Below, piece by piece: positions 2,844 to 41,698 of a stretch of DNA of 64,000 bases. The translations under genes and the position numbers were made by a program. The notes under the pieces were generated by a model that had not been told where the DNA came from, made no database searches, and was given only the letters and a program-made list of their open reading frames with translations. Source of the stretch: a virus (Duplodnaviria > Caudoviricetes); the IMG/VR virus record IMGVR_UViG_3300032007_000060, positions 18,229 through 82,228 of that record; one strand, written 5' to 3'. How positions within the stretch are numbered: position 1 is the first letter of the stretch; every line of letters begins with the position of its first letter.

Positions 2844-2930
2844 TTACCTAGTCCTTTCACCTATAAGAAAACCCATATATGCTGCCATTGCACCTAATAA
2901 GAAAAATACAACCCATTCTACTTCAATCAT
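2844..2930 (-). CDS. small membrane peptide (28 aa, not in ORF track)
   Basis: MIEVEWVVFFLLGAMAAYMGFLIGERTR*; ATG overlaps the TGA of 2927..3328. Confidence 0.45.
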   Translation of the reverse strand: MIEVEWVVFFLLGAMAAYMGFLIGERTR

Positions 2931-3663: not shown

Positions 3664-3678
3664 TACACATCACCATCA

Positions 3679-3840
3679 TTATACCACTTCAACATCATCT
3701 AATATATTATCAAAAATTTGCTTTAAAACTGTTTTGTCTTCTTTTATTAATTCGTACAATTCTGATGAAATTAATATAATAATACCATCGACACAATTGT
3801 TTTCTTGAACATTTAGTTTAACATCTACTTTTTCAGTCAT
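3679..3840 (-). CDS. hypothetical protein
   Basis: MTEKVDV start at ATG 3840 with RBS, overlapping the upstream stop. Confidence 0.5.
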   Translation of the reverse strand: MTEKVDVKLNVQENNCVDGIIILISSELYELIKEDKTVLKQIFDNILDDVEVV

Positions 3841-4058
3841 TCTCTCACCTCTTCCAAAGGGCAAAATTTGAATAAATGTTCTTTTGGATGGGGTAGGTAG
3901 GTTTTATTTGCTTCAACGCAAATTTTTAATTTGTTGCATTTGTAGAATTCTGCTCCTATAATCAGAGGGTTGTTTTTAGATGTTTCTGTTATTCTTATTT
4001 CTTCGAAGTAAGGGCAGTATTCACATTCTTCGATTGTGCATAATTTTTTTGCAGTCAT
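3837..4058 (-). CDS. small Cys-rich protein
   Basis: 73 aa, CEYCPYF and further Cys residues. Confidence 0.55.
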   Translation of the reverse strand: MTAKKLCTIEECEYCPYFEEIRITETSKNNPLIIGAEFYKCNKLKICVEANKTYLPHPKEHLFKFCPLEEVRE

Positions 4059-4432
4059 TCTATTCTCCTTAAATTTTGTAAATATTCAAATTCGCTACCA
4101 TTAAATTCGCACTGAGGACAAGTATAATATTTTTCAAGTGTCTGAAGTTTAAAATCATTTTCACGGTGTTCTTCTGATTGCTTCTTTAACTCTCTTGATA
4201 ACTCAGATATTCTTGAATGTAGTTTGCTAATTTGTTCAATAGCATCATCAAGATTAGAGTTTAAACTTTCATTCTCTTTTATCATTTGATTTACATAATC
4301 AATAAATCCCTGCATGTATTTTTTATTATCACCAGAAGTGCTAAATCTTCCATAATAAATATAAGGGTTATCTAAATCTTTAATAACAAATTCACATAGG
4401 TTATCTAAACCTATTATATGAAATTCACTCAT
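4055..4432 (-). CDS. hypothetical protein with C-terminal CxxC
   Basis: 125-aa ORF, coiled coil plus CPQC. Confidence 0.55.
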   Translation of the reverse strand: MSEFHIIGLDNLCEFVIKDLDNPYIYYGRFSTSGDNKKYMQGFIDYVNQMIKENESLNSNLDDAIEQISKLHSRISELSRELKKQSEEHRENDFKLQTLEKYYTCPQCEFNGSEFEYLQNLRRIE

Positions 4433-4550
4433 TCCAAATCCTCCCTAAATTCTGTTATTCTCTTAAAACAAGGTATGCATAATGTTTCTTCATCATACAC
4501 TACGAAGTGAGCAGTATGTTCTATTGGCATTCCACAGATTGCACATTCAT

Positions 4551-4757
4551 TCATTCCAAATCCCTCAATGTTATTTCCAACTCTCTTTTACCAAACGGTG
4601 CTATTAATTCAAATACAATACTTCTTTCGGATTCAATACTTAGTTTATTTTCACATAACATTTTAGCAAAATCCTCTCCATTTTCAGTAAGGATTTCACC
4701 TAAATACTTTTTAAAACTAATTCCATTACCCATTGGTTTAATTTCAACATCAGTCAT
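4551..4757 (-). CDS. hypothetical protein
   Basis: 68-aa ORF with GGAG RBS. Confidence 0.5.
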   Translation of the reverse strand: MTDVEIKPMGNGISFKKYLGEILTENGEDFAKMLCENKLSIESERSIVFELIAPFGKRELEITLRDLE

Positions 4758-4974: not shown

Positions 4975-5271
4975 TCAATCGTTTAATATGTTCCTACAAT
5001 CAGTAATTTTCTCATGCATTCGCCAAATATTAAGATTTTGTGATTCTACTTCTTCTTTTAACTCCTCTACCTCTTTATTTGCCCAAAACAAATCATGAGA
5101 CAACTTACTATTCTTCAACCTTAACTGTCTATTCTCTTCATACATCCTATTCAATTCTTCACAAATAGTTATTGCATCTTTACGAGTATCCGCAAACGCA
5201 AAATGATGATTCTCCTTTTGAATTTCACCACGATAATTCACAAACAGATCAGTCATCAATAATACCTCCAC
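4975..5271 (-). CDS. hypothetical coiled-coil protein
   Basis: 98-aa ORF (probable start MTDLF). Confidence 0.55.
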   Translation of the reverse strand: MEVLLMTDLFVNYRGEIQKENHHFAFADTRKDAITICEELNRMYEENRQLRLKNSKLSHDLFWANKEVEELKEEVESQNLNIWRMHEKITDCRNILND

Positions 5272-26784: not shown

Positions 26785-27172
26785 TTTTAATCACCACTAA
26801 TATACTATTCTGATGAAGATATTATATTAAATTTATTCATAAAAAAACGTTAAAAAAAAGGGGTAGTTTAACCAGGAAAATAGGGCATTAAAATAATTTT
26901 TTATTCTTTTATTTTTAAATTAAATGGAGAGAATATTCTATTTTTTTCTGTATATTTATTCATGTGATTTTTGAGTGAAACTATAATAAAAAACACAGAT
27001 TTACAGTTCTCTCTGAGTATAAAGAAGAGCTTTATTAAGAAAAAAAAATATTTTATTTCCTCCATTTAGATAAAAAAATAAAGAATTTTATTATTTTTTT
27101 TCATAACATCTTCTTTTCCTGGTTAAACATTAATTTTATTATTTCTTTTACTGTATTGTAACAAATGAAATT

Positions 27173-28363
27173 TTATTTTTCACTTATCCTTTCAAGAATA
27201 CTTTCACGAGTAACTGGTTTGTCATCTATCTCATCCAATCTTTTTTCAATAACATTCATACGAGATTCCATTTCCTTAACTTCAGACTCTTTCTCATGAT
27301 ACTTAACTTCCAACTCTTGATATTCTGGACTCTTAATATCAATATTATTAACATTTTTCTCAATAAGCAAACATGGGAAATGCTCAACATATTTTTTCAA
27401 AAGTACAGTTGGATCATCTAAAAAATAAGCTGCTCTTGTAGTTGACTTGGTTCTGCCTTGCAGCGCATCAATATCAGATTCACTCATACCAGATTTCCTG
27501 AGATGATTTGAATGAAATTTACGCATCATGTGACTGCGGAAACGATTAAAACCATCACTTGCTTGACCAAAGTTAAACTGGTCATTGTACCGGTAATATG
27601 CAACTGGAATGTAGTTTTCTTCTTTGTCAAACAATTTATCATCGTCTGATAAATTAATAAGTTTCAAGGTTCCGTCTTCAAGTGTTTCTACACGGTCTGT
27701 TAAAAGATATTCAACAATTTTATCAACTGCTTCTGGAGTGCAGAAAGTGTAATAATATTTATTGGTTTTTTCTCTTTTCAGTTTAAAAGTAGGAATAACA
27801 TTGTCTAAATCTTTTAAGATTAGTAATGCTTCGATTATATCGTTTTTTCTATGGAATGGGTAGGTTGCTTTTTTGAATTGACCTATAGTCATTTCGATTG
27901 TTTCTTTTCTTGCGCATCCGGTTGATATTTGGAATATTAATACTGCTTGGAACCATAGTGGTGCAACGTGTAATACTTGGCTTATTTCTTTGTGTGTTAA
28001 TAGTTCGTCGAAAGTTACTTCCCCGGGGATGTGGAATCCCCGTGGGTTAACTTTTGTTAAGTCTCCTATTTCGATTTCAAAGTATTTGTATACTGCAATT
28101 ACTTGTGTGAAATATGTTGATACTGTATTTTTTTTGTAGTTTTGTATTAGGTAGTTTCTGAATTGCAGTAGTCTTTTTTTTAGTGTTCTACGTTTCCATC
28201 TTACTCCTTTTTCTTCTTCTGTTTCTGCTTCGTCTATTAATTCTTCCATTGTTAAACCATGGAATTTTGAGTATTTGTTTATTGCTCTGGTGTAGATTTC
28301 ACGTGTTTTTGGATCATGGTTTTTTACTAGGAAGAATTCTTCGAGCAATTCTTCGTTTCTCAT
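27173..28363 (-). CDS. tyrosine recombinase/integrase A
   Basis: STGCARKE, KREKT, RSHMMRKFH, LQGR, terminal AAY catalytic Tyr. Confidence 0.9.
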   Translation of the reverse strand: MRNEELLEEFFLVKNHDPKTREIYTRAINKYSKFHGLTMEELIDEAETEEEKGVRWKRRTLKKRLLQFRNYLIQNYKKNTVSTYFTQVIAVYKYFEIEIGDLTKVNPRGFHIPGEVTFDELLTHKEISQVLHVAPLWFQAVLIFQISTGCARKETIEMTIGQFKKATYPFHRKNDIIEALLILKDLDNVIPTFKLKREKTNKYYYTFCTPEAVDKIVEYLLTDRVETLEDGTLKLINLSDDDKLFDKEENYIPVAYYRYNDQFNFGQASDGFNRFRSHMMRKFHSNHLRKSGMSESDIDALQGRTKSTTRAAYFLDDPTVLLKKYVEHFPCLLIEKNVNNIDIKSPEYQELEVKYHEKESEVKEMESRMNVIEKRLDEIDDKPVTRESILERISEK

Positions 28364-28984
28364 GTTTTATCTCTCTATGTGTTATATTTATATAAAGTAT
28401 TAGAGAGAGCATTTGATAAGTAATGTTTATCATATTTTTGGACATATGGTATATATATTATTGGGAATATGATAAACTATTGTATGTGCTTTTTTTGTTT
28501 ATCATATTCGTGGTAGTATAGTATAAATATTGTTCGAAATATGATTAACTTTGCTTCTCTCTAACGGTTGTATTTTTTGTGTTTTGAGAGATAAATAGGT
28601 AATTATACAGTGATGTACTTTTTTGTACATCATTGTTTATCATTAACAATTGTTATACTACGCATTAGAAATATATAACACATGATATAAAAACATTATG
28701 ATTTCAAAATCAACATCTTACCCGAAAGATCAACTTCCAACTTATCAACAATAACATGAGAAATACCATCCTTATCATGATACTCCACACTAAAATCATC
28801 AGGCAACTTATCAACAAAATCCTTTAAATCTCCAATAGTCAAAACTGTCATGTATTATATATTATAAAAATAATCCTAATAAACATGTTGAAAAACCATC
28901 ATGAGGATTAAAAAAAAAGTAAAGTTTAAGACCTAAATATACCTCATGATGAAAATTCAACTTTAAACCATCACCAAATAGAAT

Positions 28985-29009
28985 TCAACCTACGTACCAG
29001 GTAGGTTGA
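28985..29009. repeat. perfect 9-7-9 inverted repeat, att/recombinase core-site candidate
   Basis: TCAACCTAC GTACCAG GTAGGTTGA between the two recombinase genes. Confidence 0.45.
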
Positions 29010-29094
29010 CAATTAATACTATCCTCCTTAACCTATATAAATAAAGTGAGAGAGAGCATTTGAAAAGTATTCATAAACAATAAATAATAATATT

Positions 29095-30132
29095 ATGTAT
29101 CACAGTAAACTATTCACAAAATTTTGTAAAGACCGAAACGTTAAAAAAAGCACCAAAAAAGGTTATGAATCCGCATTAAAAAATTATACCCGATACCATA
29201 ACCAAACAATTGAAGAACTAATACAAGAAGCCCAAACTGATGAAAAAAACAAAATAATCCTAAAAGATAGAAAAATCAAAAAAAGATTACTCAAATACAG
29301 GACCTATTTATTCAGCAGCAACAAATCACCAAACACAATTAAAACATACTTCACTAGGGTAAAAACATTCTATGCTCATTTTGAAATTGAAATCCCAAAG
29401 TTACCTGATGCAAAATATGATAAAATCTATGAAACCAACTACATGGACCTACCTACAAAAGAAGATATCCGCAAAGTATTAGATTTGGTAACAGTAGACC
29501 TCCGCAGCATAATATTATTCATGTCATCTTCAGGAACTGCCAAGGCAGAAACATTAAGCATTACCATAGAACAATTCATCAATGGAACACGTGACTACCA
29601 CAATGGTGGAACCATCCAACAAATACTAGAAACATTATCAAAAAAGAATAATATAATTCCAACATTCTATTTGAAAAGAATCAAGACAGATAAATACTAT
29701 TACACTTTCTGTTCCCCTGAAGCTGCATCCGAAATCGTCAAATATCTTCAAGTCAGAAGTGACTTGAAACTTGATGATCCACTTTTCAACTTCACACCAG
29801 GAACATTATTAACTCGATTCCAAGAAATAAATGACCAACTCGGATGGGGATTTAAAGGCAGTTATAGGTTCTTTAGAAGTCATACCTTACGGAAATTTCA
29901 TGCAAGTAATATAGGATTATCTGCTGAATATATTGACAGTTTACAGGGCCGTAGTAAAAATGAGATACATGAAACATATATTAAAACCAATCCTGAAAAG
30001 TTAAAGGAAATCTACCAATCCGCAATGCATAATGTAATGATATATAACAAACCACGTGAAGAACATGTTACTCAAGAATTCACAATAGTGATTAATGTAT
30101 TCTTATCAGGTAAAGAGTATAATATAATTTAA
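29095..30132 (+). CDS. tyrosine recombinase B (candidate invertase)
   Basis: SSGTAKAE, KRIKT, RSHTLRKFH, LQGR, ETY; paralog of recombinase A; 1.7 kb from the shufflon. Confidence 0.85.
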   Translation: MYHSKLFTKFCKDRNVKKSTKKGYESALKNYTRYHNQTIEELIQEAQTDEKNKIILKDRKIKKRLLKYRTYLFSSNKSPNTIKTYFTRVKTFYAHFEIEIPKLPDAKYDKIYETNYMDLPTKEDIRKVLDLVTVDLRSIILFMSSSGTAKAETLSITIEQFINGTRDYHNGGTIQQILETLSKKNNIIPTFYLKRIKTDKYYYTFCSPEAASEIVKYLQVRSDLKLDDPLFNFTPGTLLTRFQEINDQLGWGFKGSYRFFRSHTLRKFHASNIGLSAEYIDSLQGRSKNEIHETYIKTNPEKLKEIYQSAMHNVMIYNKPREEHVTQEFTIVINVFLSGKEYNII

Positions 30133-30140
30133 AAAAAAAT

Positions 30141-30180
30141 AAGGGCCAACCATACGAACTTAATCGTACAGTTGACCCCT
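30141..30180 (+). terminator. stem-loop downstream of recombinase B
   Basis: AGGG.CAAC..TACGA-loop-TCGTA..GTTG.CCCT, next to an A-tract, between convergent genes. Confidence 0.4.
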
Positions 30181-30633
30181 AATTTATATAAATTCTTCAA
30201 AAAAAAAGAAATTGGATAGTTAAGAGATTACTCTCATTTTTTTTATGGAATAATAATATTATCGTTCTTTTTTAAATAAACTAGGTAATTTCATAGTTTC
30301 AAAAAAATATTTAGTTTTACATCTCGTATTCTTTTCGTATTCTCTACTACTTATAATACAGATGAATCCAAAAAGTTTCTTTTTTTTGTTGAATTTACAT
30401 TTATAATATTAGAAATTCATTTTATCTTATTGTAACTTTTTTAAATCGGCTTCTAGTAATGCAATTTCCTCTTCAATCTCAGCATGTTCCTTATCAGAAG
30501 TACATACAATTAATCTATGATTCAAAGCTTTGATTTGAGCACGAATTATATTTCGTTGAGAGGTTTTATTCAGTACTTTGGTTTCCATATCACTCAACAT
30601 AATATTTAATCTCCTTTCCTCTAAAACAATATT

Positions 30634-30822
30634 TTATTGAACATAGTTTTTATATACTCTTTCGGTTCTATCTGAAATATCATGCTTATGTCTTTCTATA
30701 TTTAATGCGACTTGAGCATCTAATACTTCATCAGTTAAACCTTCCTTTTCGTATTGTTTATTAATTTTTCTTTGTCTATTTCTAAATTGAACTCTTTTCA
30801 CAAATTTTGATAACTTGTTCAT
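30634..30822 (-). CDS. hypothetical protein in lysis region
   Basis: 62-aa ORF with GGAG RBS directly after the endolysin. Confidence 0.55.
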   Translation of the reverse strand: MNKLSKFVKRVQFRNRQRKINKQYEKEGLTDEVLDAQVALNIERHKHDISDRTERVYKNYVQ

Positions 30823-30847
30823 TTATTTTCCCTCCATAGAAAACTAA

Positions 30848-31732
30848 TTAACCATTATACAGATATGCTACACTTTTCTGACTAATACCATTAATATATC
30901 TTTTCTGTGTACTTTTTGTTCTGGTTTCAATATAACCACAATATGTGCCTGAGCCGCAGCTGTCTCCCAGACTGTTTAAGATTTTTAAATCATCACTAAC
31001 AGTTTTAATGACTTCATAATGACCCCATTGGTCACGATAGAGCAAATGGAAAAATACTGCTCCTTTACTTATCATGGTTTTGATTTTATCCCATGATAAT
31101 TCAGAGAAGTTGTACCAACTGATCTTAACATTTTTACTGTATTTTTTGTTGAACATTGCAACTGCAGTATTAATACCTTGATGTCCGGTGCCGTCACTGG
31201 TAGTTGAGGCCCATCCTGCGATTGTTTTTTCGGATACTTTTATTCCAGTTAGGCGATAGAATGCTTGTTGTAGACTGTTACATGCACAGTAGTATCCAGT
31301 GCATTGGCCCATTCCTGAACAACCATGTTCTGTTAAATATTCATGTAATTTAGGTATTTTTTCATATGAAACTTTTATTTTACTTGGATTTTTTCCATGT
31401 TGTTTTCTGTAAGAAGTTAATGTTTTTGCAATGTTTCGGTATGATGCTCTGTTGTATTTGTTAACTCCGCTTGAACCCATGACATAACCAGGTAAATTTT
31501 CTTTAGCAGTTTTGCTAATAACATCTTCCATGAAACGGCTGATATATTCATCATGACCGTAATCTGTACCGTTCTTTTTGATTAATGCTATAATGTCTTT
31601 GTAACTTTTTTTCTTTCCGTTAATGGTTATACTATCTGAATGTTTGAATGATTTGCCGGATTTAATTAATTTGTAGGCTACTCTGCATAATACATTCTTA
31701 CAACCTTTGTAGCTTAGTTCTTTTGTTGCCAT
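30848..31732 (-). CDS. endolysin: pseudomurein-binding repeat plus C39-like peptidase (PeiR-like)
   Basis: PMBR-like YRNIAKTLTSYRKQHGKNPSKIKV; catalytic YYCACNSLQQ, WGHYEVI, ILNSLG. Confidence 0.75.
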   Translation of the reverse strand: MATKELSYKGCKNVLCRVAYKLIKSGKSFKHSDSITINGKKKSYKDIIALIKKNGTDYGHDEYISRFMEDVISKTAKENLPGYVMGSSGVNKYNRASYRNIAKTLTSYRKQHGKNPSKIKVSYEKIPKLHEYLTEHGCSGMGQCTGYYCACNSLQQAFYRLTGIKVSEKTIAGWASTTSDGTGHQGINTAVAMFNKKYSKNVKISWYNFSELSWDKIKTMISKGAVFFHLLYRDQWGHYEVIKTVSDDLKILNSLGDSCGSGTYCGYIETRTKSTQKRYINGISQKSVAYLYNG

Positions 31733-31822
31733 AGTTTATCACATCCTTTTTTTAAATTTTTAAATATTATTTCTTCCAAAAAAAATGAATTTTCTATTTT
31801 TTATGTTTTATTCATGGAATCA

Positions 31823-32167
31823 TCAGCAAATACCTCCTCAATACAGATTAAAGTTAAAGGAAAAAAACTTGTTGAACAATTAAACAATAATAAAATAAAA
31901 GTATATGTTATAGATGGAACTCATGTTTGTATTGGAATATATGGTGATTCATTTACTTTAACTGGTCAAAATACCACGATTGGTACGGTAAGTAATCTAT
32001 ACAAACCATTAGCAAGACAAGTAGTACTTGCACATAACTCCATTAATTCAGATAAGTTGTTCTTTTATGAAACAGGTGAGATCATATATGTGAGACTTAC
32101 TGGAAGTGCTACAACTGGTACTGTGAATAGTGGATTTTATTGTCCTTTGTTAAATCCATTGTATTAA
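31823..32167 (+). other. silent tail-fibre tip cassette 1 (114 aa)
   Basis: starts in frame at TCAGCAA (SANTSSIQIKVKG); YKP motif; homologous to the C-terminus of 33536..34423. Confidence 0.85.
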
Positions 32168-32176
32168 CGTACATAT

Positions 32177-32512
32177 TCAGCAAGTACTCAGAATACACAG
32201 GTTAATGTTACTGGATGGAAAAGAGTAGTGTATTACAGTAACAATAATAATAATTTTGAAATTTGGACTGACGGAAGATTAGCCACATATATTGTGAATA
32301 CAAATAATTTCTCTGTATCTGCTAACGTTTCTCAAACATTAACTTCCTTTGATAATAAATATGCTCCAATATATGTAGTTGGAATAAAAACAATTAATAA
32401 TCATCAAAAAACTGCAGTAATAGTTGATAATCAAGTGTATATACAATCTACAGATACTGATGGTAATATGTGGGGTACTGCAACAGTACTATTAAAAAAG
32501 TCACTATATTAA
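32177..32512 (+). other. silent tail-fibre tip cassette 2 (111 aa)
   Basis: SASTQNTQVNVTGWK...KYAP...; in frame from TCAGCAA, no start codon at the site. Confidence 0.85.
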
Positions 32513-32521
32513 CAATATTAT

Positions 32522-32842
32522 TCAGCAAATAATTCATCTATCCAAGTAAAAGTAGGAGGATGGCAATCCCGAGGAACCATTGCAACTGGTGTCAAATTAT
32601 ATGTAAATGGAGAAACAAGAACTGCAATGGTAACGGGAGTTAATATATCTCTTTCTGCAGGTGCTGAGGAACAGACTATTGCTGAAATTCCATCTGCATA
32701 TGCTCCTATTGAAAGTACAGTTACAGGAACTGCATTTAATTATGAAAGAGTAATGGTTAGAACTAATAATCGAGCGGTTAATGTTTATAATTTTAATAAG
32801 AGTATTACAGGATTATCATTTACTATTCTATATCCTTATTAA
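32522..32842 (+). other. silent tail-fibre tip cassette 3 (106 aa)
   Basis: SANNSSIQVKVGGWQ...IPSAYAP...LYPY*. Confidence 0.85.
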
Positions 32843-32856
32843 AATAAAGAATCTCT

Positions 32857-33183
32857 TCAGCAAATACTGCATCCATTCAAATTAAAGCGGATGGATGGAG
32901 AACCATCTCTACTGCTAAAGGAACATTAGAAGTTAATGAAGCATTACAATTAGCTCATTTTACATGCAGTGAAAATGTTAGCTTCCCTACCACTTCATGG
33001 CAGTTTATTGAAAAAAATAATATCCCTTCACAATATAAACCATCAAGATACATAAATGATGTTAATTTTATAGGTAGTGGCAATCAGGTATATGCTGCGC
33101 AAATCACTAAACAAGGTCATGTAATGGGATACTCCAATTATGGGAACGCTCTTATTACAATGGATGTAACTTGGAAATATTAA
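32857..33183 (+). other. silent tail-fibre tip cassette 4 (108 aa, absent from ORF track)
   Basis: translated by hand: SANTASIQIKADGWR...IPSQYKP...MDVTWKY*. Confidence 0.85.
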
Positions 33184-33212
33184 AACTAAACTTCTATATT
33201 CTATTGAATTAT

Positions 33213-33539
33213 TCAGCAAATACCCACAACACAATACAAATCCTTGTAACTGGATTTAAACAAGTACAATCACTTGAAAATGATAAAATTAAAGTATACT
33301 TCAACGGAAGAACAGTATATATTGATATATGGGGAACATTCAACATGACAAGTGGAAGTGTGGGTACAATAACCACAATATCTAAAGAATATGCTCCAAA
33401 AGGTAAAGGAGGTGTTTATTCAAGTCCTTATCCTGCAGGTTCTGAAAAAGTATTTATCAATTCAGATGGTCAGATACAATATTATCCTGGTGGATCAAAC
33501 AAAAGCATTTATGCAACATTACAATATACAATAAGTTAA
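33213..33539 (+). other. silent tail-fibre tip cassette 5 (108 aa)
   Basis: SANTHNTIQILVTGFK...KEYAP...IYATLQYTIS*; stop overlaps the stop of the expressed gene. Confidence 0.85.
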
Positions 33540-34423
33540 TATTTCCATTGTAACGTAGCATAAACCCCCACATTAGTTATTGCAGATCCAGTATAACTAT
33601 ATCTAGATACTTTCCCATTCTCGTTGACTTGAACAATTGCTCTATTCCCTACAAATATATGACTAACAACGGGGGTAGCTGGTCGGTATCCTGCAGGCAC
33701 TACAAATCCTCCGAACTCTTCGGGGTTTGCAGTAATAATTGTTGATGCAATATGAATTCGGAGTTCACATAATTCATGATTATATGAGAAAGTATAATCA
33801 GAATTGTTTGTTGGTGTTTTCCAACCTTTAACATTAATTTGAGTTTGAGAATTATTTGCTGAAAACGTGGTTAATCCCCAAGTGTCTGCAGTATAACTCA
33901 ATTGAAAAGTACCATTAACACCAGTTGTTCCAGACTTCCAAGTCGAGTTATTCTTCAAGACAGGAACAGTCACACCAGTCACTGGTCGACCTGTGGCCCT
34001 GTTAGTAACTTTCACTGTAATATTAACACTACTGTCAATATTCACATTATATGCTGAAGCTGTGATTTGATAATCATATAAATTAATAATCTGACTTACC
34101 GGATGAGTGTGACTTGCTGGAGCATAAGCGGATAACTGTGAGACTTTTGCAAAATCAGAAGATACGAAACCGGATAGTTTAGTTGCATTAATTTCTTTAG
34201 ATTCATTAATATTCTCAAGTATTTCCTCTAATCTTTCCTCTGTGAAATATGTTTCATCAATTACTGCTAATTGTGCCTGCATTTCTGCTAATGTTTCAGC
34301 ATTTGCTACACTAATACTTCCGAGATTATCTCCGCTTGTTGAGATAACAGTTACTTCTGCTCCGATGATTCTTCCATCATCTTCGCTATATGTTCTTACA
34401 TTAAAATCAACCATTGTTACCAC
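33536..34423 (-). CDS. tail fibre / receptor-binding protein, expressed allele (187-aa constant part plus 108-aa variable tip)
   Basis: ASHTHP fibre motif, Ig-like segment, crossover at TTF-SANNSQTQINVKGWK, tip with PAGYRP. Confidence 0.85.
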   Translation of the reverse strand: MVTMVDFNVRTYSEDDGRIIGAEVTVISTSGDNLGSISVANAETLAEMQAQLAVIDETYFTEERLEEILENINESKEINATKLSGFVSSDFAKVSQLSAYAPASHTHPVSQIINLYDYQITASAYNVNIDSSVNITVKVTNRATGRPVTGVTVPVLKNNSTWKSGTTGVNGTFQLSYTADTWGLTTFSANNSQTQINVKGWKTPTNNSDYTFSYNHELCELRIHIASTIITANPEEFGGFVVPAGYRPATPVVSHIFVGNRAIVQVNENGKVSRYSYTGSAITNVGVYATLQWKY

Positions 34424-34425
34424 CT

Positions 34426-36852
34426 TTATACTTTGTATTCTATCCAGTTTTGTTTAATTCTTACTTGTTTATCCGTATTCTCTCCTCTTGTTGCAGTATA
34501 ACCAATAGCAATACCTACATCTTCAAGGTTTGGAGTATAGATTACTTCCAAAGTATCATTTGGGTTTAGTATTGTACTGTAATCATTATCATTGATTATG
34601 TCAAAGATTATTATTCCTTTTGTATAATCTACTGTGAAATCAGTATCCTCTACAAGTTCTATTTCATTATCAGTATCCTTATTCAGGATGACGCTACGGA
34701 TAGGGTCGACTGGTGAAACACGTAACGGTACTTGACGAGTTTCAAGTATTGAGTCACCAACTATGAAATCCTGTTTGAAATAATCAATAACTAATGGATT
34801 GTTAATATACTTACCAGTACTGCTATTGTATACTTGACCTATTTCTGATTGTACAAGGTCTTGTATGAATACTGGATTATAACTGAATGTTATACTTCCT
34901 ACTGGTAATTTAGCGATTACTGCTTCATCTAATACTATAGTGTCATTGGTATAATCTACATTATAATCGTACCATTCACCAAGGTTCCATGAGCCCTCGT
35001 CTCCTCTTGGTTGGAGTGAACATTCAAGGATTGGATATGCTGGACTATTCTTAAGATGGAATGGAGTGTATACTTTATTATCTTCTTCATCTAATGTCCA
35101 GAAGCTCATACCATGCTCTTCCTCAAGGTCATCTTCCCATGGTAATACATATACTCTTTGTTCCCTTAGTAATTCAATAGCGGAAGGATTATCAATGAGA
35201 TACTGGTAACGTACATCCAAATCATCATCAGTAATCTTATCCTCATCTAAACCAGTAATCCAAGTATACTCATCTAATTCCTCTGCAGTGATTACTATGA
35301 AATGGTCAATTACTTGTTTTTCCTGGATGACTTCAATCTTACAATCAGTACTTGGATCAATGTTGACTGGTGCGAAAATACGGCCCCAATGTGACGCTCC
35401 TAACATGGCACCAGTTTTTGGGTAATAGTATTTAGTACGCACATACATTTGTTTTGGTAATCCACTGGTGAAGCTTGCTGTAATCTCTTGTATTGCAGGG
35501 GATTTAGTGTTATTAGTAGTCCACATTTTCACTCGGATAAATAATGTTCTTGGGTAGTTTCCTTCACTATCTGGACTGAATGCTTTCTTATGATTAGTTA
35601 ATGTACTCCATGTTCGACCGTCTACAGATACTTCATATTGTAGTTTTCCAGGATAACTTGAAGAATCCCCACTATCAGTACAGCTCAATGTGACTTCACT
35701 AAATGGATTGGTGTGTATTGGTTTCAAGTATAACCAATGGTCTCCAGTTACATATGTTGATGAGTCTTGTCTGATATTTAATTGGAATGCAAAATCAGAT
35801 GGTGTTAAACGGCCGAGATAATAATCTACTTTTAAGTCATTACGTCCGTATCTTTCCCATGTTCTTCCATTATTGTTACTGAGGAATGCATCTCCACCCA
35901 TATACTTTGAGTTTTCACAGTTACGACCCCATCCACCAACACGAGGACATTTACTCCAATTACTTAATGGGGACATAAAGACAAGGGCATATGATTCTCC
36001 AGCTTCAACTCTTGGAGGTTGAGGGAACGCAATGCTTACGAAACCTGGTTCAACAATACTTGGGTCAAATGCAGTTTCAGCAATACAATTATAAGGGTCA
36101 CCATCAGGCCAAGCAATAGTTTCAGTTTCACCAGCAACAGGAGTATTAGTTTGAGTTTTAGGGTCCCAAGTCATTTTAGGAACAGTAATTTCTTTTGTTT
36201 TCCATAACTGAACAATCAATGGACTTCCCCAATTACCATTATTACTACCATTATTAGCAATATGTAACGCTACCGCTTCTAATTTACCTCCTTTCCCTGA
36301 AGGCACAGTGAATGTTTGAGCACGGCAAACACTTGGGATTCCTTCAAGTTTATTATCCATAATCCAATCACTACGAAGAGTATAGGTTTCATTTTTATCA
36401 AAACCCACATACCAATGAGTGTTGATTTGACCTTCCGCCCAATTCTTAACTGACTGGTCTAATGTACCTGGAGTATTCGGCAATACAACCTGATCCACTA
36501 TGGTACCGGTAGTGTCATCAACATAATGGTCAATAACTGCAGTGGATTTATCACGGTCAACTACAGTATCATCATCAAAAGTAATAGTCCTTGATTTATT
36601 GGTATCAGTATCAAAGATGATTTCATTCTCAGTTGTTTGCATAAATCCATAACTGACTGTAGCATCTATTGGTATTGGATTAAATCGTTTACGTACTGCT
36701 GGTGGAGTGAGATATTCCACTTCATCTAATTTTTGTTTTAAGTATTCATCGTTTTGACAAATCTGCCTGAATAATTCTACTGTAGGATACATTTGCTCGC
36801 TGAAGGATTGTATCCTATTCAAATTCCTATATCGTGGTTCACAATTAACCAT
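34426..36852 (-). CDS. virion tail/baseplate structural protein
   Basis: 808-aa beta-rich ORF within the tail operon. Confidence 0.55.
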   Translation of the reverse strand: MVNCEPRYRNLNRIQSFSEQMYPTVELFRQICQNDEYLKQKLDEVEYLTPPAVRKRFNPIPIDATVSYGFMQTTENEIIFDTDTNKSRTITFDDDTVVDRDKSTAVIDHYVDDTTGTIVDQVVLPNTPGTLDQSVKNWAEGQINTHWYVGFDKNETYTLRSDWIMDNKLEGIPSVCRAQTFTVPSGKGGKLEAVALHIANNGSNNGNWGSPLIVQLWKTKEITVPKMTWDPKTQTNTPVAGETETIAWPDGDPYNCIAETAFDPSIVEPGFVSIAFPQPPRVEAGESYALVFMSPLSNWSKCPRVGGWGRNCENSKYMGGDAFLSNNNGRTWERYGRNDLKVDYYLGRLTPSDFAFQLNIRQDSSTYVTGDHWLYLKPIHTNPFSEVTLSCTDSGDSSSYPGKLQYEVSVDGRTWSTLTNHKKAFSPDSEGNYPRTLFIRVKMWTTNNTKSPAIQEITASFTSGLPKQMYVRTKYYYPKTGAMLGASHWGRIFAPVNIDPSTDCKIEVIQEKQVIDHFIVITAEELDEYTWITGLDEDKITDDDLDVRYQYLIDNPSAIELLREQRVYVLPWEDDLEEEHGMSFWTLDEEDNKVYTPFHLKNSPAYPILECSLQPRGDEGSWNLGEWYDYNVDYTNDTIVLDEAVIAKLPVGSITFSYNPVFIQDLVQSEIGQVYNSSTGKYINNPLVIDYFKQDFIVGDSILETRQVPLRVSPVDPIRSVILNKDTDNEIELVEDTDFTVDYTKGIIIFDIINDNDYSTILNPNDTLEVIYTPNLEDVGIAIGYTATRGENTDKQVRIKQNWIEYKV

Positions 36853-37949: not shown

Positions 37950-38056
37950 TTTAATCAACTCCATTGAGAATTTTTTTGATGAATTATTATAAGTATGAAT
38001 ATTTCTTGGGAAATGGTGTTGGTGATTTAAATATAAAAGCTGAATGTAACTTAGTA

Positions 38057-38515
38057 ACAGAAATATTCGCTCTTCAAGATTGTTGGGATTACGATACCAC
38101 TACCCGTAACCTTGCACCAAACAGTAGTCTAAGCCAAATTGACAGTTTCGCATTCACTAATACTGGTGATTGGGAAGTGGAATGGATAATGAGATTACCA
38201 TCTGGTAAAAGTAGGGTAGTATTATACAATCCAAGCAATGCCAATGTCTTTTTAGGAGTGGGAGCAAGTGAAAACAATAACCGTGTTATTTACTGGTATG
38301 GTCATGAAGATGGAGAAACTCCTTATTCATACAATACCGATTACACTATAAAAATCCAAAAAGATGGCAGTAACTTTAAAATATACTCACAAGGGTCATT
38401 ATTAAAGACTATGACTTATAGTGATTTACTGAATACTTCTACCATCAATTTAGGTTTAAGGAATTGGGGTAGTGGAACTGGAACAATCCGTAATGTAAAG
38501 ATTAAACCATTATAA
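38057..38515 (+). other. silent alternative C-terminal domain (152 aa) of the adhesin
   Basis: TEIFALQDC...GTIRNVKIKPL* parallels the adhesin's TEIFALQDC...SKIKNVKFKSL*; tail-to-tail stops at 38510-38515. Confidence 0.85.
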
Positions 38516-39022
38516 TGATTTGAATTTTACATTCTTGATTTTTGAAGTTCCACTTGCACCCCATCTCATCATAGACATACAGTAATCAGTATAATTATCA
38601 ATCCAAGACAATATGAATGAGCCTATTAAATTATCATCAACATAAACACTTATGCTTGTTTCATCTTTAACAAATTTGACAGTATGATAAGTTCCTGATG
38701 TGGCAGTAACCGATGGGAAACCTACACTTTGACTGCTATTGTTCTCCCTTTTACCGAAAGCCATTTGATTATTTCTTAACATATCCAAGTAAATCGCATA
38801 TTGTGGTTGTGTTGTACCACTACTGTATTGTGTCTTTGGCATAATGAAGAAACGATGTTCCCCAGTACTAGTGTTATCAGACCATATATCAAAACTTATT
38901 TCACATTTGCTTGGTAATGATTGGCTTAAACTGTTATCATAGATTGTTGAACCATTGGTGGAACTTCGAGTAACTTCGGCAGTATTATAGTAACTGCAAT
39001 CTTGAAGAGCGAATATTTCTGT
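38057..39022. repeat. perfect 26-bp inverted repeat bounding an invertible segment
   Basis: ACAGAAATATTCGCTCTTCAAGATTG at 38057-38082 (+) and 38997-39022 (-). Confidence 0.9.
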
Positions 39023-41698
39023 GAATATTATTCCGCAATTTGCTTTTATATATAAATCTCCTGTACCTTTTCCCAAGTAAGATACGCTTGCCTCTCCAGA
39101 ACTATCAGTAACATCAGAACCAAGACTTTCACCATTCACAACTTCAAAACTTACAGTTTCACCAACACAAGGATTACCATTAGAATCCAATACTTTCGCA
39201 GTAATAGTGGCAGTTTCACCTTTCATCATAATTGGCTTGTCAGATGAAACTGTGATGCTTGCAGGTGCCGGACGGTCACTTACAACAACATTAACAATAC
39301 TTGATTCAACATTATTATAAGTGGCATCTCCTTCATATACTACTTTATAACTGAATGTTCCTGCGACAGATGAAGTGATTGATTTGCTGAATGTTCCATC
39401 ATTACCAGTGGTTAATTGAGGGTCTATGAGTGTATTACCATCATATAATTTGATATTTACACTTCCTAATCCTGAACCGTTATATAATAATGCACCAGAT
39501 AAAGTGTAGGAGTCACCAGTGGTGACACTTGCACTGCTGGTGACTAAGCTGATTGTTGGTGTGCGTTTTACAATAGTTACATTTACATCAGAAGAGGTTG
39601 CACTATCATAAGTGCCGTCTCCTTCGTATACGGCCTTGTATGTTTTACTGGATACAATGGAAGCGGTTAATGTTTTACTGAATGTTCCATTGTCTGTTGT
39701 TACTGTGTGGAGTAATGTTTCACCGTCATAGATTTTTACATCAACATCATCCATTCCTGTTGTACCAGTTTTTAATGTTCCTGATAATGTGATTGTTTCT
39801 CCAAGGTCATAACTGGATTTATCTGCATTGAATGTTATTGTTGTTGGTTTCTTATTCACAGTTATGTTTTCAGTTGCATTATTACTGTAATAATCTTCAT
39901 CACCTTCAAATACTGCTTTAATGCTAACTGCTCCACTAATATTTGCAGTTATATCTTTACTGAAGTTTCCTGCATTGCCTTGTGTTGTCACAGTATCCAC
40001 CAACGTGTTATTCACATAAATTTTTATACTTTTACCTGTTAAAGCTGTGAGTTCATCATCAGTTAATGATCCTCTTATCTCGATTGTTTCCCCGATAGTG
40101 TAGGTTGATTTATCTGTAGATAATGTGAGTATTGTACTTGTTTTACCTGCTCCTTCACTAATCACTACATATAATGGATTAGTATTCTTATTATTGTTAA
40201 TCCAGTTACTGTTACTTACTAATGTGCTGCTGGTGTCATGTGTTAATGTTATATCTTGCAGGTTCAATGATTGGTTTTGATATACTCTGAAGAATTTTAA
40301 TCCTACACTATTATTGATTGTAGGGTTTCCGCAGCCGAGTATTGTGCAAGTGTAGGGTACGTTATAGATATGGTCTGTTGAATGTGTACCTGAAGTTAAT
40401 ACGATGAGGTTTTCTTCACCATTCACCATTGACAGGGCCTTATCTAATGTAGCGAATGGGTCATCAATTTTACCAGTATTATTATCATTTCCTGAAGTGG
40501 AAACATACCAGTTACCCGTATTACATCCACGGACAGTGACTTCAAGAGTTTCCGTTTCAAAAATAGTAGGTCCTTCATAGGCCTCGAATTTAAAAACATT
40601 AGGAGCATCATCACTGATTAAATCACTGGTTACTGTATATTGTTCTCCAGTATAATTTTCGACGAGGACTGTATCTTCTTCATCACCCAATAATGTGATT
40701 GTTACACTGTAATCCCCAGTTAATTTCTCAGCAAGACTATTCAAGAATTGGAAATTAAATATTACATTCTGATTCTTAACAGGTATTAAAGTATTAGCTG
40801 ATACAAAGAAGAATCTTCCATTATCCGATGTTAATTCGCATAATTTGTCTTTATGTTCCCATGGCATTGGTGTCCAGTCACCGACAAGGCCTGTTTCTTC
40901 ATCGTATGGGTGCATATGTTCATCGAACATCTTTAAGAGGTATTCTTCTCTGTTTATCATGTCGCTGAAGATGCCGTATTCTTTCCATATTTCTAATACG
41001 GGTAATGCTGTGTTATGTATTCTGAGATTGTATTCTATGATACGGTTCATGTAATGATAATCATCTTCACTTAACCTGTTGTTGTATGGTGGTTCGGTAT
41101 GTTCATAATCTTCAGTACTTTTATATGTTTTTCTTTGTATGCCGTTTAATGCTCCGATTTCATCTAAACTGTAATCATGGTCGAATTCATTTCCCAATTC
41201 CTCATCGTTTTCAGGGAATCCTTTTTCAATAATGATTTCATCATATGCTTCGGCTATAATCTTAAAAGTATCATCAGGAATTATAGGAATTTCAATCTCA
41301 CTATCCTCTACTTCATTTTCTTCCTCATTATCTTCAACATTCTCATCAACAATTGTATTTTCCTCACTACTATCATAAGAATAAATGAAAGAATTAACAT
41401 TATCCTCTTCTAAGTATTCTTCCATATAGAGCAGAGTATCATTTTTATAACATTTCACACTTTTCAACTGAGGATAATTCACAACAAAATTAATAACATA
41501 ATCATAAGGCACACTTTGCTCCTTCCAAATACAACAACGCTTCCTTAACCTCAAACTATCAGAAACATCACTAATACTTTGAAAAATACCCTTCAAAAGA
41601 TTATTAGTAACACTCTGAGATTTAAAGAAATTACTTGTCTCCGACTTATCAAAAAAATGAGGAAACATCTTAATTAAACTTTGCATACTCCTTTTCAT
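38510..41698 (-). CDS. baseplate-anchored adhesin/tail fibre with Ig-like repeats and ConA/LamG-like tip
   Basis: WYVSTSGNDNNTG..DDPFAT motif; 3-4 Ig-like repeats (TITLSGTL...VKIYDG...T..NGTFS...Y.GD..Y); C-terminal beta-sandwich. Confidence 0.8.
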   Translation of the reverse strand: MKRSMQSLIKMFPHFFDKSETSNFFKSQSVTNNLLKGIFQSISDVSDSLRLRKRCCIWKEQSVPYDYVINFVVNYPQLKSVKCYKNDTLLYMEEYLEEDNVNSFIYSYDSSEENTIVDENVEDNEEENEVEDSEIEIPIIPDDTFKIIAEAYDEIIIEKGFPENDEELGNEFDHDYSLDEIGALNGIQRKTYKSTEDYEHTEPPYNNRLSEDDYHYMNRIIEYNLRIHNTALPVLEIWKEYGIFSDMINREEYLLKMFDEHMHPYDEETGLVGDWTPMPWEHKDKLCELTSDNGRFFFVSANTLIPVKNQNVIFNFQFLNSLAEKLTGDYSVTITLLGDEEDTVLVENYTGEQYTVTSDLISDDAPNVFKFEAYEGPTIFETETLEVTVRGCNTGNWYVSTSGNDNNTGKIDDPFATLDKALSMVNGEENLIVLTSGTHSTDHIYNVPYTCTILGCGNPTINNSVGLKFFRVYQNQSLNLQDITLTHDTSSTLVSNSNWINNNKNTNPLYVVISEGAGKTSTILTLSTDKSTYTIGETIEIRGSLTDDELTALTGKSIKIYVNNTLVDTVTTQGNAGNFSKDITANISGAVSIKAVFEGDEDYYSNNATENITVNKKPTTITFNADKSSYDLGETITLSGTLKTGTTGMDDVDVKIYDGETLLHTVTTDNGTFSKTLTASIVSSKTYKAVYEGDGTYDSATSSDVNVTIVKRTPTISLVTSSASVTTGDSYTLSGALLYNGSGLGSVNIKLYDGNTLIDPQLTTGNDGTFSKSITSSVAGTFSYKVVYEGDATYNNVESSIVNVVVSDRPAPASITVSSDKPIMMKGETATITAKVLDSNGNPCVGETVSFEVVNGESLGSDVTDSSGEASVSYLGKGTGDLYIKANCGIIFTEIFALQDCSYYNTAEVTRSSTNGSTIYDNSLSQSLPSKCEISFDIWSDNTSTGEHRFFIMPKTQYSSGTTQPQYAIYLDMLRNNQMAFGKRENNSSQSVGFPSVTATSGTYHTVKFVKDETSISVYVDDNLIGSFILSWIDNYTDYCMSMMRWGASGTSKIKNVKFKSL

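Follow-up and report, generated by a model that had tools for sequence, protein, structure and literature searches.

The pilV shufflon of the IncI1 plasmid R64 is rearranged by multiple inversions at short sites with one conserved arm, which are catalyzed by Rci, a tyrosine recombinase encoded adjacent to the array. The tail-fibre locus described here resembles it in joining a constant N-terminus to alternative adhesin C-termini and in its association with a tyrosine recombinase, whereas the product is a pilus adhesin of a plasmid in R64 and a virus fibre here. In the Gin (Mu G), Cin (P1 C) and Min (p15B) systems too, fibre C-termini are exchanged by site-specific inversion, with Min being a multi-way switch with several crossover sites. 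However, these systems use serine invertases, whereas a search for serine recombinases (PF00239) recovered no resolvase/invertase domain from the 82-kb virus record that contains our locus (estimated to be 79% complete), while 12 of 14 control genomes gave matches. The locus is thus distinct from serine-invertase switches of the Gin, Cin, Min and Hin type. A sequence-only reading of this DNA had assigned it the same logic as the R64, Mu, P1 and p15B switches; the logic holds, but not the enzyme class of the last three. Because the enzyme is a tyrosine recombinase, the nearest analogues are the R64 Rci system and above all Rin, rather than Gin, Cin or Min.

Among known systems, the Rin shufflon of the dnaJ2-integrated prophages of Bifidobacterium (Mavrich et al. 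2018, PMC6109161) comes closest. In both systems a virus-encoded tyrosine recombinase lies beside the array, and a constant N-terminal segment of the receptor-binding protein (RBP) is accompanied by several start-less variable C-terminal segments, each headed by a short repeat, which in Rin is asymmetric and 11 bp long. The tips are very dissimilar in both (6-30% in Rin versus 20-35% in the methanogen virus), and inversions at the sites became apparent when prophage was compared with virion or different assemblies with one another. The two differ in that the host here is archaeal and in their unrelated sites, TTCCCTAACCC in Rin versus TTCAGCAAATA here. Furthermore, the recombinase of our locus groups, in profile and phage-database searches, with Methanobacteriales virus integrases and archaeal XerA. 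A published network analysis found archaeal tyrosine recombinases to be without direct relationship to Rci (PMC8371274). Another shufflon, from BV01-like phages of Phocaeicola vulgatus, has directional 10-bp motifs, six isoforms and several configurations in reads (preprint, PMC13596623); as in our locus, the array overlaps the 3' end of the tail-fibre gene and is flanked by a recombinase. It differs in its bacterial host and in having three cassettes whose inversion shifts the stop position, as against five complete head cassettes of uniform size here.

Among archaeal viruses, the haloarchaeal myoviruses phiCh1, phiH1 and ChaoS9 possess an Int1 module, likewise with a tyrosine recombinase, in which inversion alters the expressed fibre and adhesion specificity. 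There, two full-length opposed fibre genes flank the recombinase gene, whereas our locus comprises one full-length gene and an array of five tip-only cassettes, with the recombinase lying outside the array. The paper on MSTV1 was considered as a further archaeal precedent for inversion and rejected, as it describes no inversion system. The sequence-only reading had regarded a multi-cassette system of this kind as possibly new for an archaeal virus; consistent with this, our literature search, which lay outside the compendium of Medvedeva et al. 2023, found no report of one, fibre inversion being known in the three viruses named above. Here we present evidence that, in a tailed virus assigned to rumen Methanobrevibacter, this locus is very probably an active multiple-inversion switch, or shufflon, that exchanges the receptor-binding head of the fibre.

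Anatomy of the fibre locus

The window (the whole 64-kb stretch of DNA analysed) contains the following elements, where L004, L005 and L006 are related genomes, L023 is a near-identical contig, L029 is the ENA assembly ERZ27252073, X3 is a sequencing run, and TCAGCAARTA is the core motif of the sites:

34426..36852, - strand: 808-aa protein associated with the tail or baseplate, immediately upstream of the fibre gene; homologues in MAGs
33536..34423, - strand: tail-fibre/receptor-binding protein gene; from the ORF list, with orthologues in L004, L005 and L006
33863..34414, - strand: constant part of the fibre, 184 aa, common stem for every tip; from conservation and the L023 flank
33536..33862, - strand: expressed tip T0, 108 codons and stop; predicted head fold, silent in L023
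31823..32167, + strand: silent cassette C1 (distal), 114 codons and stop; ORF
32177..32512, + strand: silent cassette C2, 111 codons and stop; ORF with an L004 counterpart
32522..32842, + strand: silent cassette C3, 106 codons and stop; ORF, the expressed tip in L023 and L029
32857..33183, + strand: silent cassette C4, 108 codons and stop; ORF, inverted in L023
33213..33539, + strand: silent cassette C5, 108 codons and stop; ORF, with a C5-like tip fused at the L029 end
33853..33863, - strand: internal crossover site s0 (TTCAGCAAATA; motif 33862-33853), Ser-Ala-Asn codons 185-187; breakpoint seen in L023 and L029 and at the X3 joint
31822..31832, + strand: site s1 (ATCAGCAAATA; motif from 31823); motif copy
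32176..32186, + strand: site s2 (TTCAGCAAGTA; motif from 32177); motif copy
32521..32531, + strand: site s3 (TTCAGCAAATA; motif from 32522); breakpoint of both L023 inversions and the X3 joint
32856..32866, + strand: site s4 (TTCAGCAAATA; motif from 32857); motif copy
33212..33222, + strand: site s5 (TTCAGCAAATA; motif from 33213); breakpoint of the second L023 inversion

The fibre gene, which lies directly downstream of the gene for the 808-aa tail protein, encodes 295 aa if read from a GTG at 34423 or 292 aa from an ATG at 34414. The latter (MVDFN) appears the more likely start: it is preceded by AGGTGG, as in the relatives L004 and L005, and the orthologues in L004, L005 and L006 all begin with MVDFN. 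The internal site, earlier placed at codon 188, is indeed present, but falls at codon 185 when counted from the ATG and at 188 only with the GTG start. The constant part is 57-73% identical to those of L004, L005 and L006, whereas the tips share 20-35% identity.

TCAGCAARTA occurs seven times in the window, as against 0.40 copies expected from shuffled sequences (the largest shuffle having three), and six of these copies, five on the + strand and one on the - strand, are in this locus. As in a shufflon, short conserved crossover sites (at least three) are thus present in both orientations. The + strand sites all read TCA GCA A(A/G)T, encoding SAN or SAS, and s0 falls in a low-confidence linker of the fibre model (residues 179-186), just before the head domain. 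The sites are uniform within a genome and differ between genomes, the window and L004 having TCAGCAA.., L005 TCAACAAA and L006 TCAGCGAATAAT.

All six tips share S1, A2, Q8, G13 and a Y..P motif (YKP, YAP or YRP). Gaps of 8-28 nt separate each cassette stop from the next site, and the stop of C5 abuts that of T0, tail to tail. These observations bear out the sequence-only reading, which had described five + strand cassettes of 106-114 codons, all starting with one and the same site in a common reading frame and each ending in its own stop, with an S-A start, conserved Q and G positions and a Y(A/K/R)P motif, tightly packed and lacking ribosome-binding sites. The layout, one constant 5' part with start-less in-frame 3' segments, is that of a shufflon, with the qualification that C1 and C5 have in-frame starts.

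These starts invite the reading that each cassette is translated alone as a small protein, such as a separate adhesin or decoy. An in-frame ATG, found among the cassettes of the window at C1 only, lies three codons upstream of it, in both L004 and L005 the distal cassette has one four codons upstream, and C5 is preceded by two in-frame TTG codons. However, C2-C4 have no start codon and an in-frame stop three codons upstream, and no Shine-Dalgarno-like motif occurs within 30 nt upstream of any of the five cassettes, whereas the fibre gene has its AGGTGG. Moreover, the cassettes are without a stem for attachment to the virion, and their fusion to the constant part is observed in natural DNA (see below). 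Separate translation, which the sequence-only reading had named as an outcome that would refute it, is hence highly improbable.

All 17 silent cassettes in four genomes, despite AT-rich DNA, are open frames of 96-116 codons. C2 is 75% identical to a silent cassette at 11582 of L004, with a dN/dS of 0.20; values for silent cassettes are 0.14-0.20, just as low as those of the constant part (0.18-0.29). As judged by these ratios, the silent cassettes are under purifying selection. Both the open frames with their low dN/dS and the homogenisation of sites within each genome argue against the array being a relic of tandem tip duplications, rarely rearranged by chance at a short repeat with no programmed switch behind it.

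Rearranged arrays in natural DNA

The contig L023 is 99.4-100% identical to positions 26836-34918 of the window, but differs from it by two nested inversions, both with their breakpoints within the sites. The array reads s1 C1> s2 C2> s3 C5> <T0 s5 <C4 s4 <C3 s0 constant, which is the product of an inversion between s3 and s0, followed by one between s3 and s5. The inversions were reciprocal, because each of the six tips was kept once and the left flanks were swapped exactly at TCAGCAAATA. The last bases of the constant part (..ACGTTT) remain joined to the site despite the change of tip. In the expressed gene of L023, which encodes 290 aa, the constant part continues in frame into C3, while T0 now lies silent in the array, preceded by the left flank of s5. 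An identical 290-aa fusion of the constant part to C3 is found in L029, and at the end of the same contig a constant-part flank is fused to a C5-like tip. In L005, one cassette points the same way as the expressed gene, as would result from an inversion through the second cassette.

In run X3, which is independent and comes from another sample and study than X1, the likely source run, a contig contains an opposite-strand joint between 32536 and 33849 with 15 shared letters, thereby connecting s3 to s0. The depth at this joint is 13.9 versus about 28 in its flanks, i.e. about half. Contigs of X3 and of run X4 end at the sites (31823, 32176, 32531, 33222 and 33863), even though the repeat is far shorter than the assembly word. 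X1 has one unbroken contig over 31701-33936, which is no evidence against switching because contigs drop minor variants. Short loose ends (19 letters) in run X8 hint at an unrelated tip after s4 and at a cassette-type flank before T0, but they are too short to serve as evidence.

Alternative natural arrangements with breakpoints in the sites, as typify shufflons, are therefore present in L023, L029, X3 and the flipped cassette of L005. They substantiate the earlier proposal that inversion fuses the constant part in frame to a new tip. Two of the checks suggested alongside it returned positive results: a search for alternative junctions, at the level of contigs, yielded the X3 joint between s3 and s0, and comparison of cassette order in related genomes yielded the re-ordered L023 and the flipped L005 cassette. 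The runs were examined at the contig level, where rare junctions and rates stay hidden, so that the rate of switching can only be inferred, and the variants could be co-existing lineages separated by rare past inversions.

Two alternatives need to be weighed against these arrangements. The silent start-less donors resemble in layout those of pilin and tprK variation, where tips would be exchanged by non-reciprocal gene conversion. However, in L023 each tip is present exactly once, the tip that was replaced returns among the cassettes with its flanks exchanged, and the DNA between the sites is physically inverted; likewise, the X3 joint connects opposite strands. Of all the readings considered, gene conversion is consequently the least credible. 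The relic reading draws on the evidence being from assembled contigs only, and hence giving no rate, and on the existence of relatives without cassettes. Set against these, in addition to the coding evidence given above, are two exact inversions between genomes that are 99.4-100% identical and a junction at about half the flank depth in X3, and we consider a mere relic quite improbable. A programmed shufflon remains by far the preferred explanation.

Candidate recombinases and relatives of the array

Beyond the array, the window encodes two paralogous tyrosine recombinases and a lysin-like protein:

27173..28363, - strand: 396-aa paralogous tyrosine recombinase (39% identity); from homology, retained in L020
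29095..30132, + strand: 345-aa tyrosine recombinase, candidate shufflon invertase; from PHROG 1, the XerA profile and linkage
30848..31732, - strand: lysin-like gene between the recombinase and the array; from tblastn

The 345-aa protein matches the PHROG 1 integrase family (E 1.2e-14), and a profile of eight paralogues matches XerA (5hxy, E 1.6e-10), with the HxxR motif (H-T-L-R) and the E-T-Y tyrosine aligned; it thus has the catalytic domain, HxxR motif and tyrosine of the tyrosine recombinase superfamily. Among NCBIfam models (E up to 1) the sole match was archaeal XerA, at 42 bits and below the cut-off of 220, and Pfam gave only sub-threshold matches (a SAM-like N-domain). The nearest proteins in the phage database are integrases of Methanobacteriales viruses, with 42-44% identity to the annotated integrases of vir080 and MSTV1. 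The conserved box I arginine is replaced in the 345-aa protein, with SSGTAKAE in all four orthologues, while the longer paralogues have GCARKE (TGCARKET in the 396-aa protein of the window; also the 400-aa protein of L006) or G(M/L)R (L004 and L005). This lysine could, to go by the motif, lower the activity of the 345-aa enzyme.

As in shufflons, a dedicated recombinase is encoded beside the array: orthologues of the 345-aa protein (67-86% identity) adjoin it in all four genomes, at a distance of 1.7 kb in the window and abutting it in L006. In the relatives L015 and L020, both of which are without usable cassettes, this gene is deleted but for its last 33-38 codons, while L020 has kept the longer paralogue despite its collapsed array. 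Since the record encodes three tyrosine recombinases in total, we infer from this linkage and co-loss which of them acts, namely the 345-aa protein, and the 396-aa paralogue is probably the integrase, or alternatively the invertase. A second inverted-repeat system is present at 38052-39027. It is possible that the shufflon is real and another enzyme performs the inversions, be it the 396-aa paralogue, the third tyrosine recombinase or the host XerA, with the 345-aa protein being an integrase or serving the second invertible segment. The number of recombinases in the record, the similarity of the 345-aa protein to annotated integrases, its lysine in box I and the need of the second system for an enzyme too would all fit such an arrangement. 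However, the constant proximity of the 345-aa gene to the array and its deletion in both relatives with lost or collapsed arrays speak against it, and we regard it as unlikely, though less so than the other alternatives. The 345-aa protein thus remains our favored invertase.

The relatives L004-L012 were found via the neighboring 808-aa protein. The fibre protein alone retrieved no related locus from viral contigs, and neither megablast with the locus nor tblastn with the fibre matched any of 50,697 phage records. Identical proteins were likewise absent from the record look-ups made for the 808-aa protein and for the 292-aa fibre of the window. L004, L005 and L006 have five, six and four tips, respectively. 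Spare tips are absent in L015, which has no cassettes, in L018/L019, in L020, where the collapsed array shows a deletion junction between two direct sites, and in the published vir080; the existence of such relatives means that the switch is dispensable. In vir080, the closest published relative, four ordinary same-strand genes occupy the place where the array would be; it is reportedly part of the virus compendium of Medvedeva et al. 2023 (Nat Microbiol). The more distant loci L008-L012, from Methanobrevibacter MAGs, share the fibre N-terminus, and a 10-mer screen found no repeated in-frame site in them.

The sequence-only reading had taken this to be an archaeal virus, which its relatives corroborate. 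Across 185,579 species genomes, homologues of the 808-aa protein were confined to five Methanobrevibacter MAGs, and among 50,697 phage records the lysin, the recombinase and the 808-aa protein match only vir080, vir249, vir075, MSTV1, psiM2 and psiM100. With tblastn, the lysin matches Methanobacteriales viruses only, including vir080 (45% along its full length) and MSTV1, where the match covers the part annotated as pseudomurein endo-isopeptidase; Pfam returned nothing for it and NCBIfam nothing useful. Relatives are thus restricted to archaeal hosts, supporting a tailed virus with rumen Methanobrevibacter as its predicted host.

The predicted head and the proposed role of the switch

In lactococcal phages such as p2, TP901-1 and bIL170, the head domain of the RBP carries the receptor-binding site. 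Our model of the fibre begins with an N-terminal beta domain and helices, which are followed by an MG/Ig-like domain (110-183), the linker and finally the head domain (193-292). The expressed tip is modelled confidently as a beta-sandwich (pLDDT >90), and residues 193-292 match residues 62-162 of TP901-1 ORF49, 157-263 of the p2 RBP and the bIL170 head (Z 9.1-9.9, rmsd 2.4-3.9 A over 89-97 residues, identity 8-14%). This one exchangeable tip is hence predicted to adopt the lactococcal-phage-type head fold. The lactococcal RBPs differ in having one fixed head per genome and a shoulder and neck, whereas the stem here contains an MG/Ig-like domain. A model of the fusion of the constant part to C3 has low confidence in the tip (pLDDT 30-70) and is uninformative on the C3 fold either way. 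Pfam gave sub-threshold matches for the fibre (CarboxypepD_reg, bMG3) and none for the cassettes. The tips may thus bind receptors, and different tips different host surface structures. That their exchange would switch host range gains plausibility from the fold predicted for the expressed tip, that of a receptor-binding head.

We propose that one promoter and one start would serve the 184-aa stem, which ends in a linker with the 10-11-bp crossover site T(A/T)T|TCAGCAA(A/G)TA; downstream, on the other strand, lie the five silent head cassettes, each opening with this site in a common frame. A tyrosine recombinase encoded by the virus, most probably the XerA-like 345-aa protein linked to the array, would pair s0 with any inverted copy and invert the DNA between them, fusing a new head in frame and parking the old one as a cassette, with nested inversions re-sorting the array. 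A virus population would in this way carry up to six fibre tips and, presumably, six adsorption specificities. There is, in our estimate, an even chance of a broader interpretation, namely that this is the first documented archaeal multi-cassette shufflon, independent of Rci and Rin and derived from a duplicated Methanobacteriales virus integrase with lysine for the first catalytic arginine, which together with a second invertible segment in a neighboring 1062-aa adhesin gene would form a combinatorial (6 x 2) adsorption apparatus. If true, it would parallel the surface variability of gut Methanobrevibacter.

To our knowledge, hardly any viruses of gut and rumen methanogens have been cultured, and what determines their host range is not known. 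The locus names the probable receptor-binding protein of one lineage of methanogen viruses and the start of its specificity domain, and points to a virus that changes its head domain by programmed DNA inversion, with the variants co-existing in cattle samples. Its six natural heads on one stem may serve as probes for Methanobrevibacter surface receptors, and the compact archaeal-virus recombinase with its site of roughly 13 bp is a candidate genetic tool for methanogens. More generally, these findings would carry the shufflon-type switching of virus receptor-binding proteins beyond bacteria into archaea, where the enzyme was apparently recruited independently.

The fibre gene, its crossover sites and its silent tips

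The IMG/VR record (82 kb, classed as linear, completeness estimate 79%) is AT-rich throughout the window (its bases 18229-82228; G+C 28-37%), where nearly all genes are carried on the minus strand. The fibre gene follows a tail module encoding a tape-measure protein, a baseplate-wedge (PHROG 6) protein and proteins of 1062, 220 and 808 aa. The ORF finder places its start at GTG 34423; judging from its agreement with orthologue starts (MVDFN), the start is most likely ATG 34414, which is preceded by AGGTGG. The sequence-only reading had rightly located a crossover site within this gene, its codon 188 becoming codon 185 when counted from this ATG.

Features of the fibre-cassette locus (window coordinates)
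29095..30132, tyrosine recombinase of 345 aa, 1.7 kb from the array
31822, 32176, 32521, 32856 and 33212, plus strand, five further copies of the TTCAGCAAATA word with at most one change (s1-s5, heading silent cassettes C1-C5)
33536..34423, minus strand, 295-aa ORF (fibre gene), after the tail module genes
33853-33863, minus strand, internal site s0, TTCAGCAAATA, inside the fibre ORF

The window contains seven copies of the word TCAGCAARTA where 0.40 would be expected, and six of them lie in the fibre-cassette locus. The plus-strand sites read TCA GCA A(A/G)T, i.e. Ser-Ala-Asn or Ser-Ala-Ser, and open frames of 114, 111, 106, 108 and 108 codons, each with its own stop, while the currently expressed tip (T0) extends for 108 codons after the internal site. 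All six tips are alignable end to end, with 24-32% identity to the expressed one and S, A, Q, G and Y-x-P as common positions. Cassettes 2-4 lack a start codon, their frame being closed by a stop three codons upstream, and no Shine-Dalgarno-like motif is found within 30 nt upstream of any cassette, whereas the fibre gene has AGGTGG. The frames, stops and upstream scan thus confirm the earlier description of five plus-strand cassettes of 106-114 codons that open with the same site in the same frame and lack a ribosome-binding site.

In three of four genomes, an in-frame ATG stands shortly before the site of the cassette most distant from the fibre gene. These genomes are the window (31814-31822, three codons upstream, MES-SAN) and the related loci L004 (11943-11954, four codons upstream, MSVY-SAN) and L005 (13066-13077, four codons upstream, MIVY-STN). 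None of these three is preceded by a Shine-Dalgarno-like motif, and they could be a chance feature of the array boundary or mark a weakly expressed free head.

Modelled with AlphaFold2 from an alignment of 21 tips, the 292-aa fibre is predicted to have, from its N-terminal side, a beta domain, helices, a disordered stretch and a beta-sandwich (113-174), followed by a low-confidence linker (179-186) that contains the crossover site, and a C-terminal beta-sandwich with pLDDT above 90. Searches with Foldseek and VIA-align match residues 193-292 to the receptor-binding protein (RBP) heads of the lactococcal phages TP901-1, p2 and bIL170 (Z 9.1-9.9, rmsd 2.4-3.9 A over 89-97 residues), the next match being the RBP of Listeria phage PSA (Z 7.9); for residues 110-183 the resemblance is to macroglobulin (MG) domains. 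On this domain layout, the cassettes are predicted to encode the complete distal head, with the crossover placed in the linker before it. Given the predicted head fold and the divergence of the tips, the heads may bind different host structures, and the array would quite probably serve to switch adsorption specificity. A model of the C3 fusion was too uncertain to bear on the fold.

Rearranged arrays in other assemblies

The sequence-only reading had proposed that inversion fuses the constant part, i.e. the fibre stem, in frame to a new tip, and that alternative junctions should be sought at the sites. An exact-protein look-up of the neighbouring recombinase retrieved L023 (contig Ga0256405_10016825, 8083 nt), which is 99.4-100% identical to window 26836-34918 in a different arrangement. 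It is collinear up to site 3, followed by 33208-33863 in the same orientation, 33222-32508 inverted and the constant part last:

Order of sites and tips (arrowheads give orientation)
Window: s1 C1> s2 C2> s3 C3> s4 C4> s5 C5> <T0 s0 <constant
L023: s1 C1> s2 C2> s3 C5> <T0 s5 <C4 s4 <C3 s0 <constant

This arrangement is the exact product of an s3/s0 inversion followed by an s3/s5 inversion. The left flanks are swapped precisely at TCAGCAAATA: C5 now follows the site-3 flank (..aatattat), T0 the site-5 flank (..tgaattat) and C3 the end of the constant part (..ccacgttt). Each tip is present once, and therefore the inversions were reciprocal. The expressed gene of L023 comprises the constant part and C3 (290 aa), which is the fusion that had been envisaged. 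An identical 290-aa protein is encoded on contig L029 of a separate ENA assembly, ERZ27252073. At the end of this contig (3586-3703) the constant-part flank recurs in reverse orientation, fused to a tip 83% identical to the window's C5, most simply because the assembly path runs through two inversion states or two strains.

We also compared the locus with Logan contigs of four bovine-gut or rumen-type runs. In X3, a run from a sample and study other than those of the likely source run X1, a contig joins 32536 to 33849 across opposite strands, the two sides sharing 15 letters; the coordinates are consistent with the constant part running through the site into the C3 tip, and the joint has a depth of 13.9 with flanks at about 28. 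Alternative junctions are found at the sites both in this run and in L023. Contigs in X3 and X4 end at 31823, 32176, 32531, 33222 and 33863; as a repeat of 10-15 bp alone is too short to break such assemblies, genuine branching at the sites is indicated. In X1 a single uninterrupted contig spans the array. Taken together, the array is almost certainly rearranged by site-specific inversion in natural populations.

Other contig ends were seen near the sites. Contig Ga0256405_10011647 (L016) stops 14 bases past the constant part, just beyond the crossover site, and is another assembly break. Short loose ends in run X8 suggest a tip absent from the window after site 4 (at 32866, SANNSNVQV..) and, in another population, a cassette-type left flank before T0 (at 33863).

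Related loci, host and recombinase

With the neighbouring 808-aa protein as query, we retrieved viral contigs of the same synteny that each have one expressed tip, along with four (L004), five (L005) or three (L006) silent ones. The comparison of cassette order suggested earlier shows that tip sets differ between these relatives and that in L005 the cassette adjoining the expressed tip is oriented like the fibre gene, the state expected after inversion through the second cassette. Tip repertoires barely overlap, with identity above 50% in two pairs only; dN/dS of these similar silent-cassette pairs is 0.20 and 0.14, as low as that of the constant part (0.29 and 0.18), and all 17 silent cassettes of the four genomes have open frames (96-116 codons). 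The site is uniform within each genome and different between genomes, reading TCAGCAA(A/G).A in the window and L004, TCAACAAA in L005 (six of six copies, with an Ala to Thr change in the protein) and TCAGCGAATAAT in L006 (four of four); it is preceded by TAT at silent sites and TTT at the expressed one. Concerted change of this kind would be expected of a crossover region whose two partners must match. The window's word differs from GTAAAAGA and GTGAAAGA, the putative site words of candidate arrays in other methanogen viruses.

Among 185,579 species genomes, homologues of the 808-aa protein were found in five ruminant-gut Methanobrevibacter MAGs only, and searches of 50,697 phage records with the lysin, recombinase and 808-aa sequences gave matches in Methanobacteriales viruses only (vir080, vir249, vir075, MSTV1, psiM2 and psiM100). 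The runs holding the locus are all bovine gut or similar metagenomes. These homologues, which bear out the assignment to an archaeal virus, and the provenance of the runs indicate that it very probably infects rumen Methanobrevibacter.

Between the 345-aa recombinase gene and the array lie a lysin-like gene and two small genes. Orthologues of this enzyme (67-86% identical) occupy the same place in L004 and L005, and in L006 the orthologue abuts the last cassette. The family matches PHROG 1, and its profile recovers the catalytic domain of archaeal XerA (5hxy, E 1.6e-10) with the HxxR motif and the tyrosine aligned. Box I (residues ~145-155) reads SSGTAKAE in four of four orthologues, with Lys at the position of the first catalytic Arg of the paralogues and LQGR in place of the usual GH. 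Next to the gene is a 396-aa paralogue (39% identity), and a third tyrosine recombinase is encoded beyond the window; the 82-kb record has no serine recombinase.

Metagenomes also contain contigs with the same fibre stem and no usable spare tips. In L014 and L015 the lysin comes directly after the tip. In L020, whose flanks are 97-98% identical to L005, the array is reduced to a frameshifted stub of one cassette and one junction. There the distal site's left flank (coding MIVY) runs into the start of another cassette, truncated at the seventh codon (STKTHN), which is the outcome that recombination between direct repeats of the site should leave. In L015 (region 1475-3591) and L020 (region 2400-4650) a deletion has spared only the last 33-38 codons of the 345-aa gene, L020 retaining the long paralogue. 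Chiefly because of this co-loss, we regard the 345-aa enzyme as the likely invertase of the array.

A second candidate invertible segment lies at window 38052-39027, with perfect 26-bp arms (38057-38082 and 38997-39022) unrelated in sequence to the shufflon site. One arm is within the 3' end of the gene for the 1062-aa protein (38510..41698, minus strand) and the other in a 183-aa ORF (37964..38515, plus strand) opposed to it tail to tail. L004 has an analogous inverted-repeat pair (3953-3995 and 5037-5079); none was found in L005 and L006 at the same threshold.

Comparison with described inversion systems

The logic of the array is that of a shufflon, of which R64 Rci is the classical tyrosine-recombinase example. 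The likeness drawn earlier to R64 pilV and to the Mu G, P1 C and p15B Min switches holds for this logic but not for the enzyme class of the latter three, as Gin, Cin and Min are serine invertases and do not fit a record devoid of serine recombinases. Of the systems described so far, the Rin shufflon of Bifidobacterium prophages comes nearest, with a tyrosine invertase beside a constant RBP segment and five variable C-terminal segments, each preceded by an asymmetric 11-bp repeat (PMC6109161). According to a recent preprint, BV01-like Phocaeicola phages carry a similar fibre shufflon (PMC13596623). Among archaeal viruses, phiCh1, phiH1 and ChaoS9 invert tail-fibre genes by a tyrosine recombinase situated between two full-length, oppositely oriented fibre genes (PMC6471424; PMC8651126).

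The sequence-only reading left the novelty of a multi-cassette inversion system in an archaeal virus to a literature check; we found no description of one in the full-text literature (Medvedeva et al. 2023 being outside this scope), and no mention in the MSTV1 paper, an archaeal tyrosine recombinase review or a 2025 provirus survey. The closest published relative, the human-gut Methanobacteriales virus vir080 (Medvedeva et al. 2023), lacks the array; four same-strand genes for proteins of 246-278 aa annotated as hypothetical (BK063677.1, 44133-47396) replace the fibre and cassettes. The recombinase has apparently been recruited independently. The shufflon first noticed from the sequence is a real finding, with its interpretation supported: in a domain of life for which we found no described example, there is now a system of a known kind.
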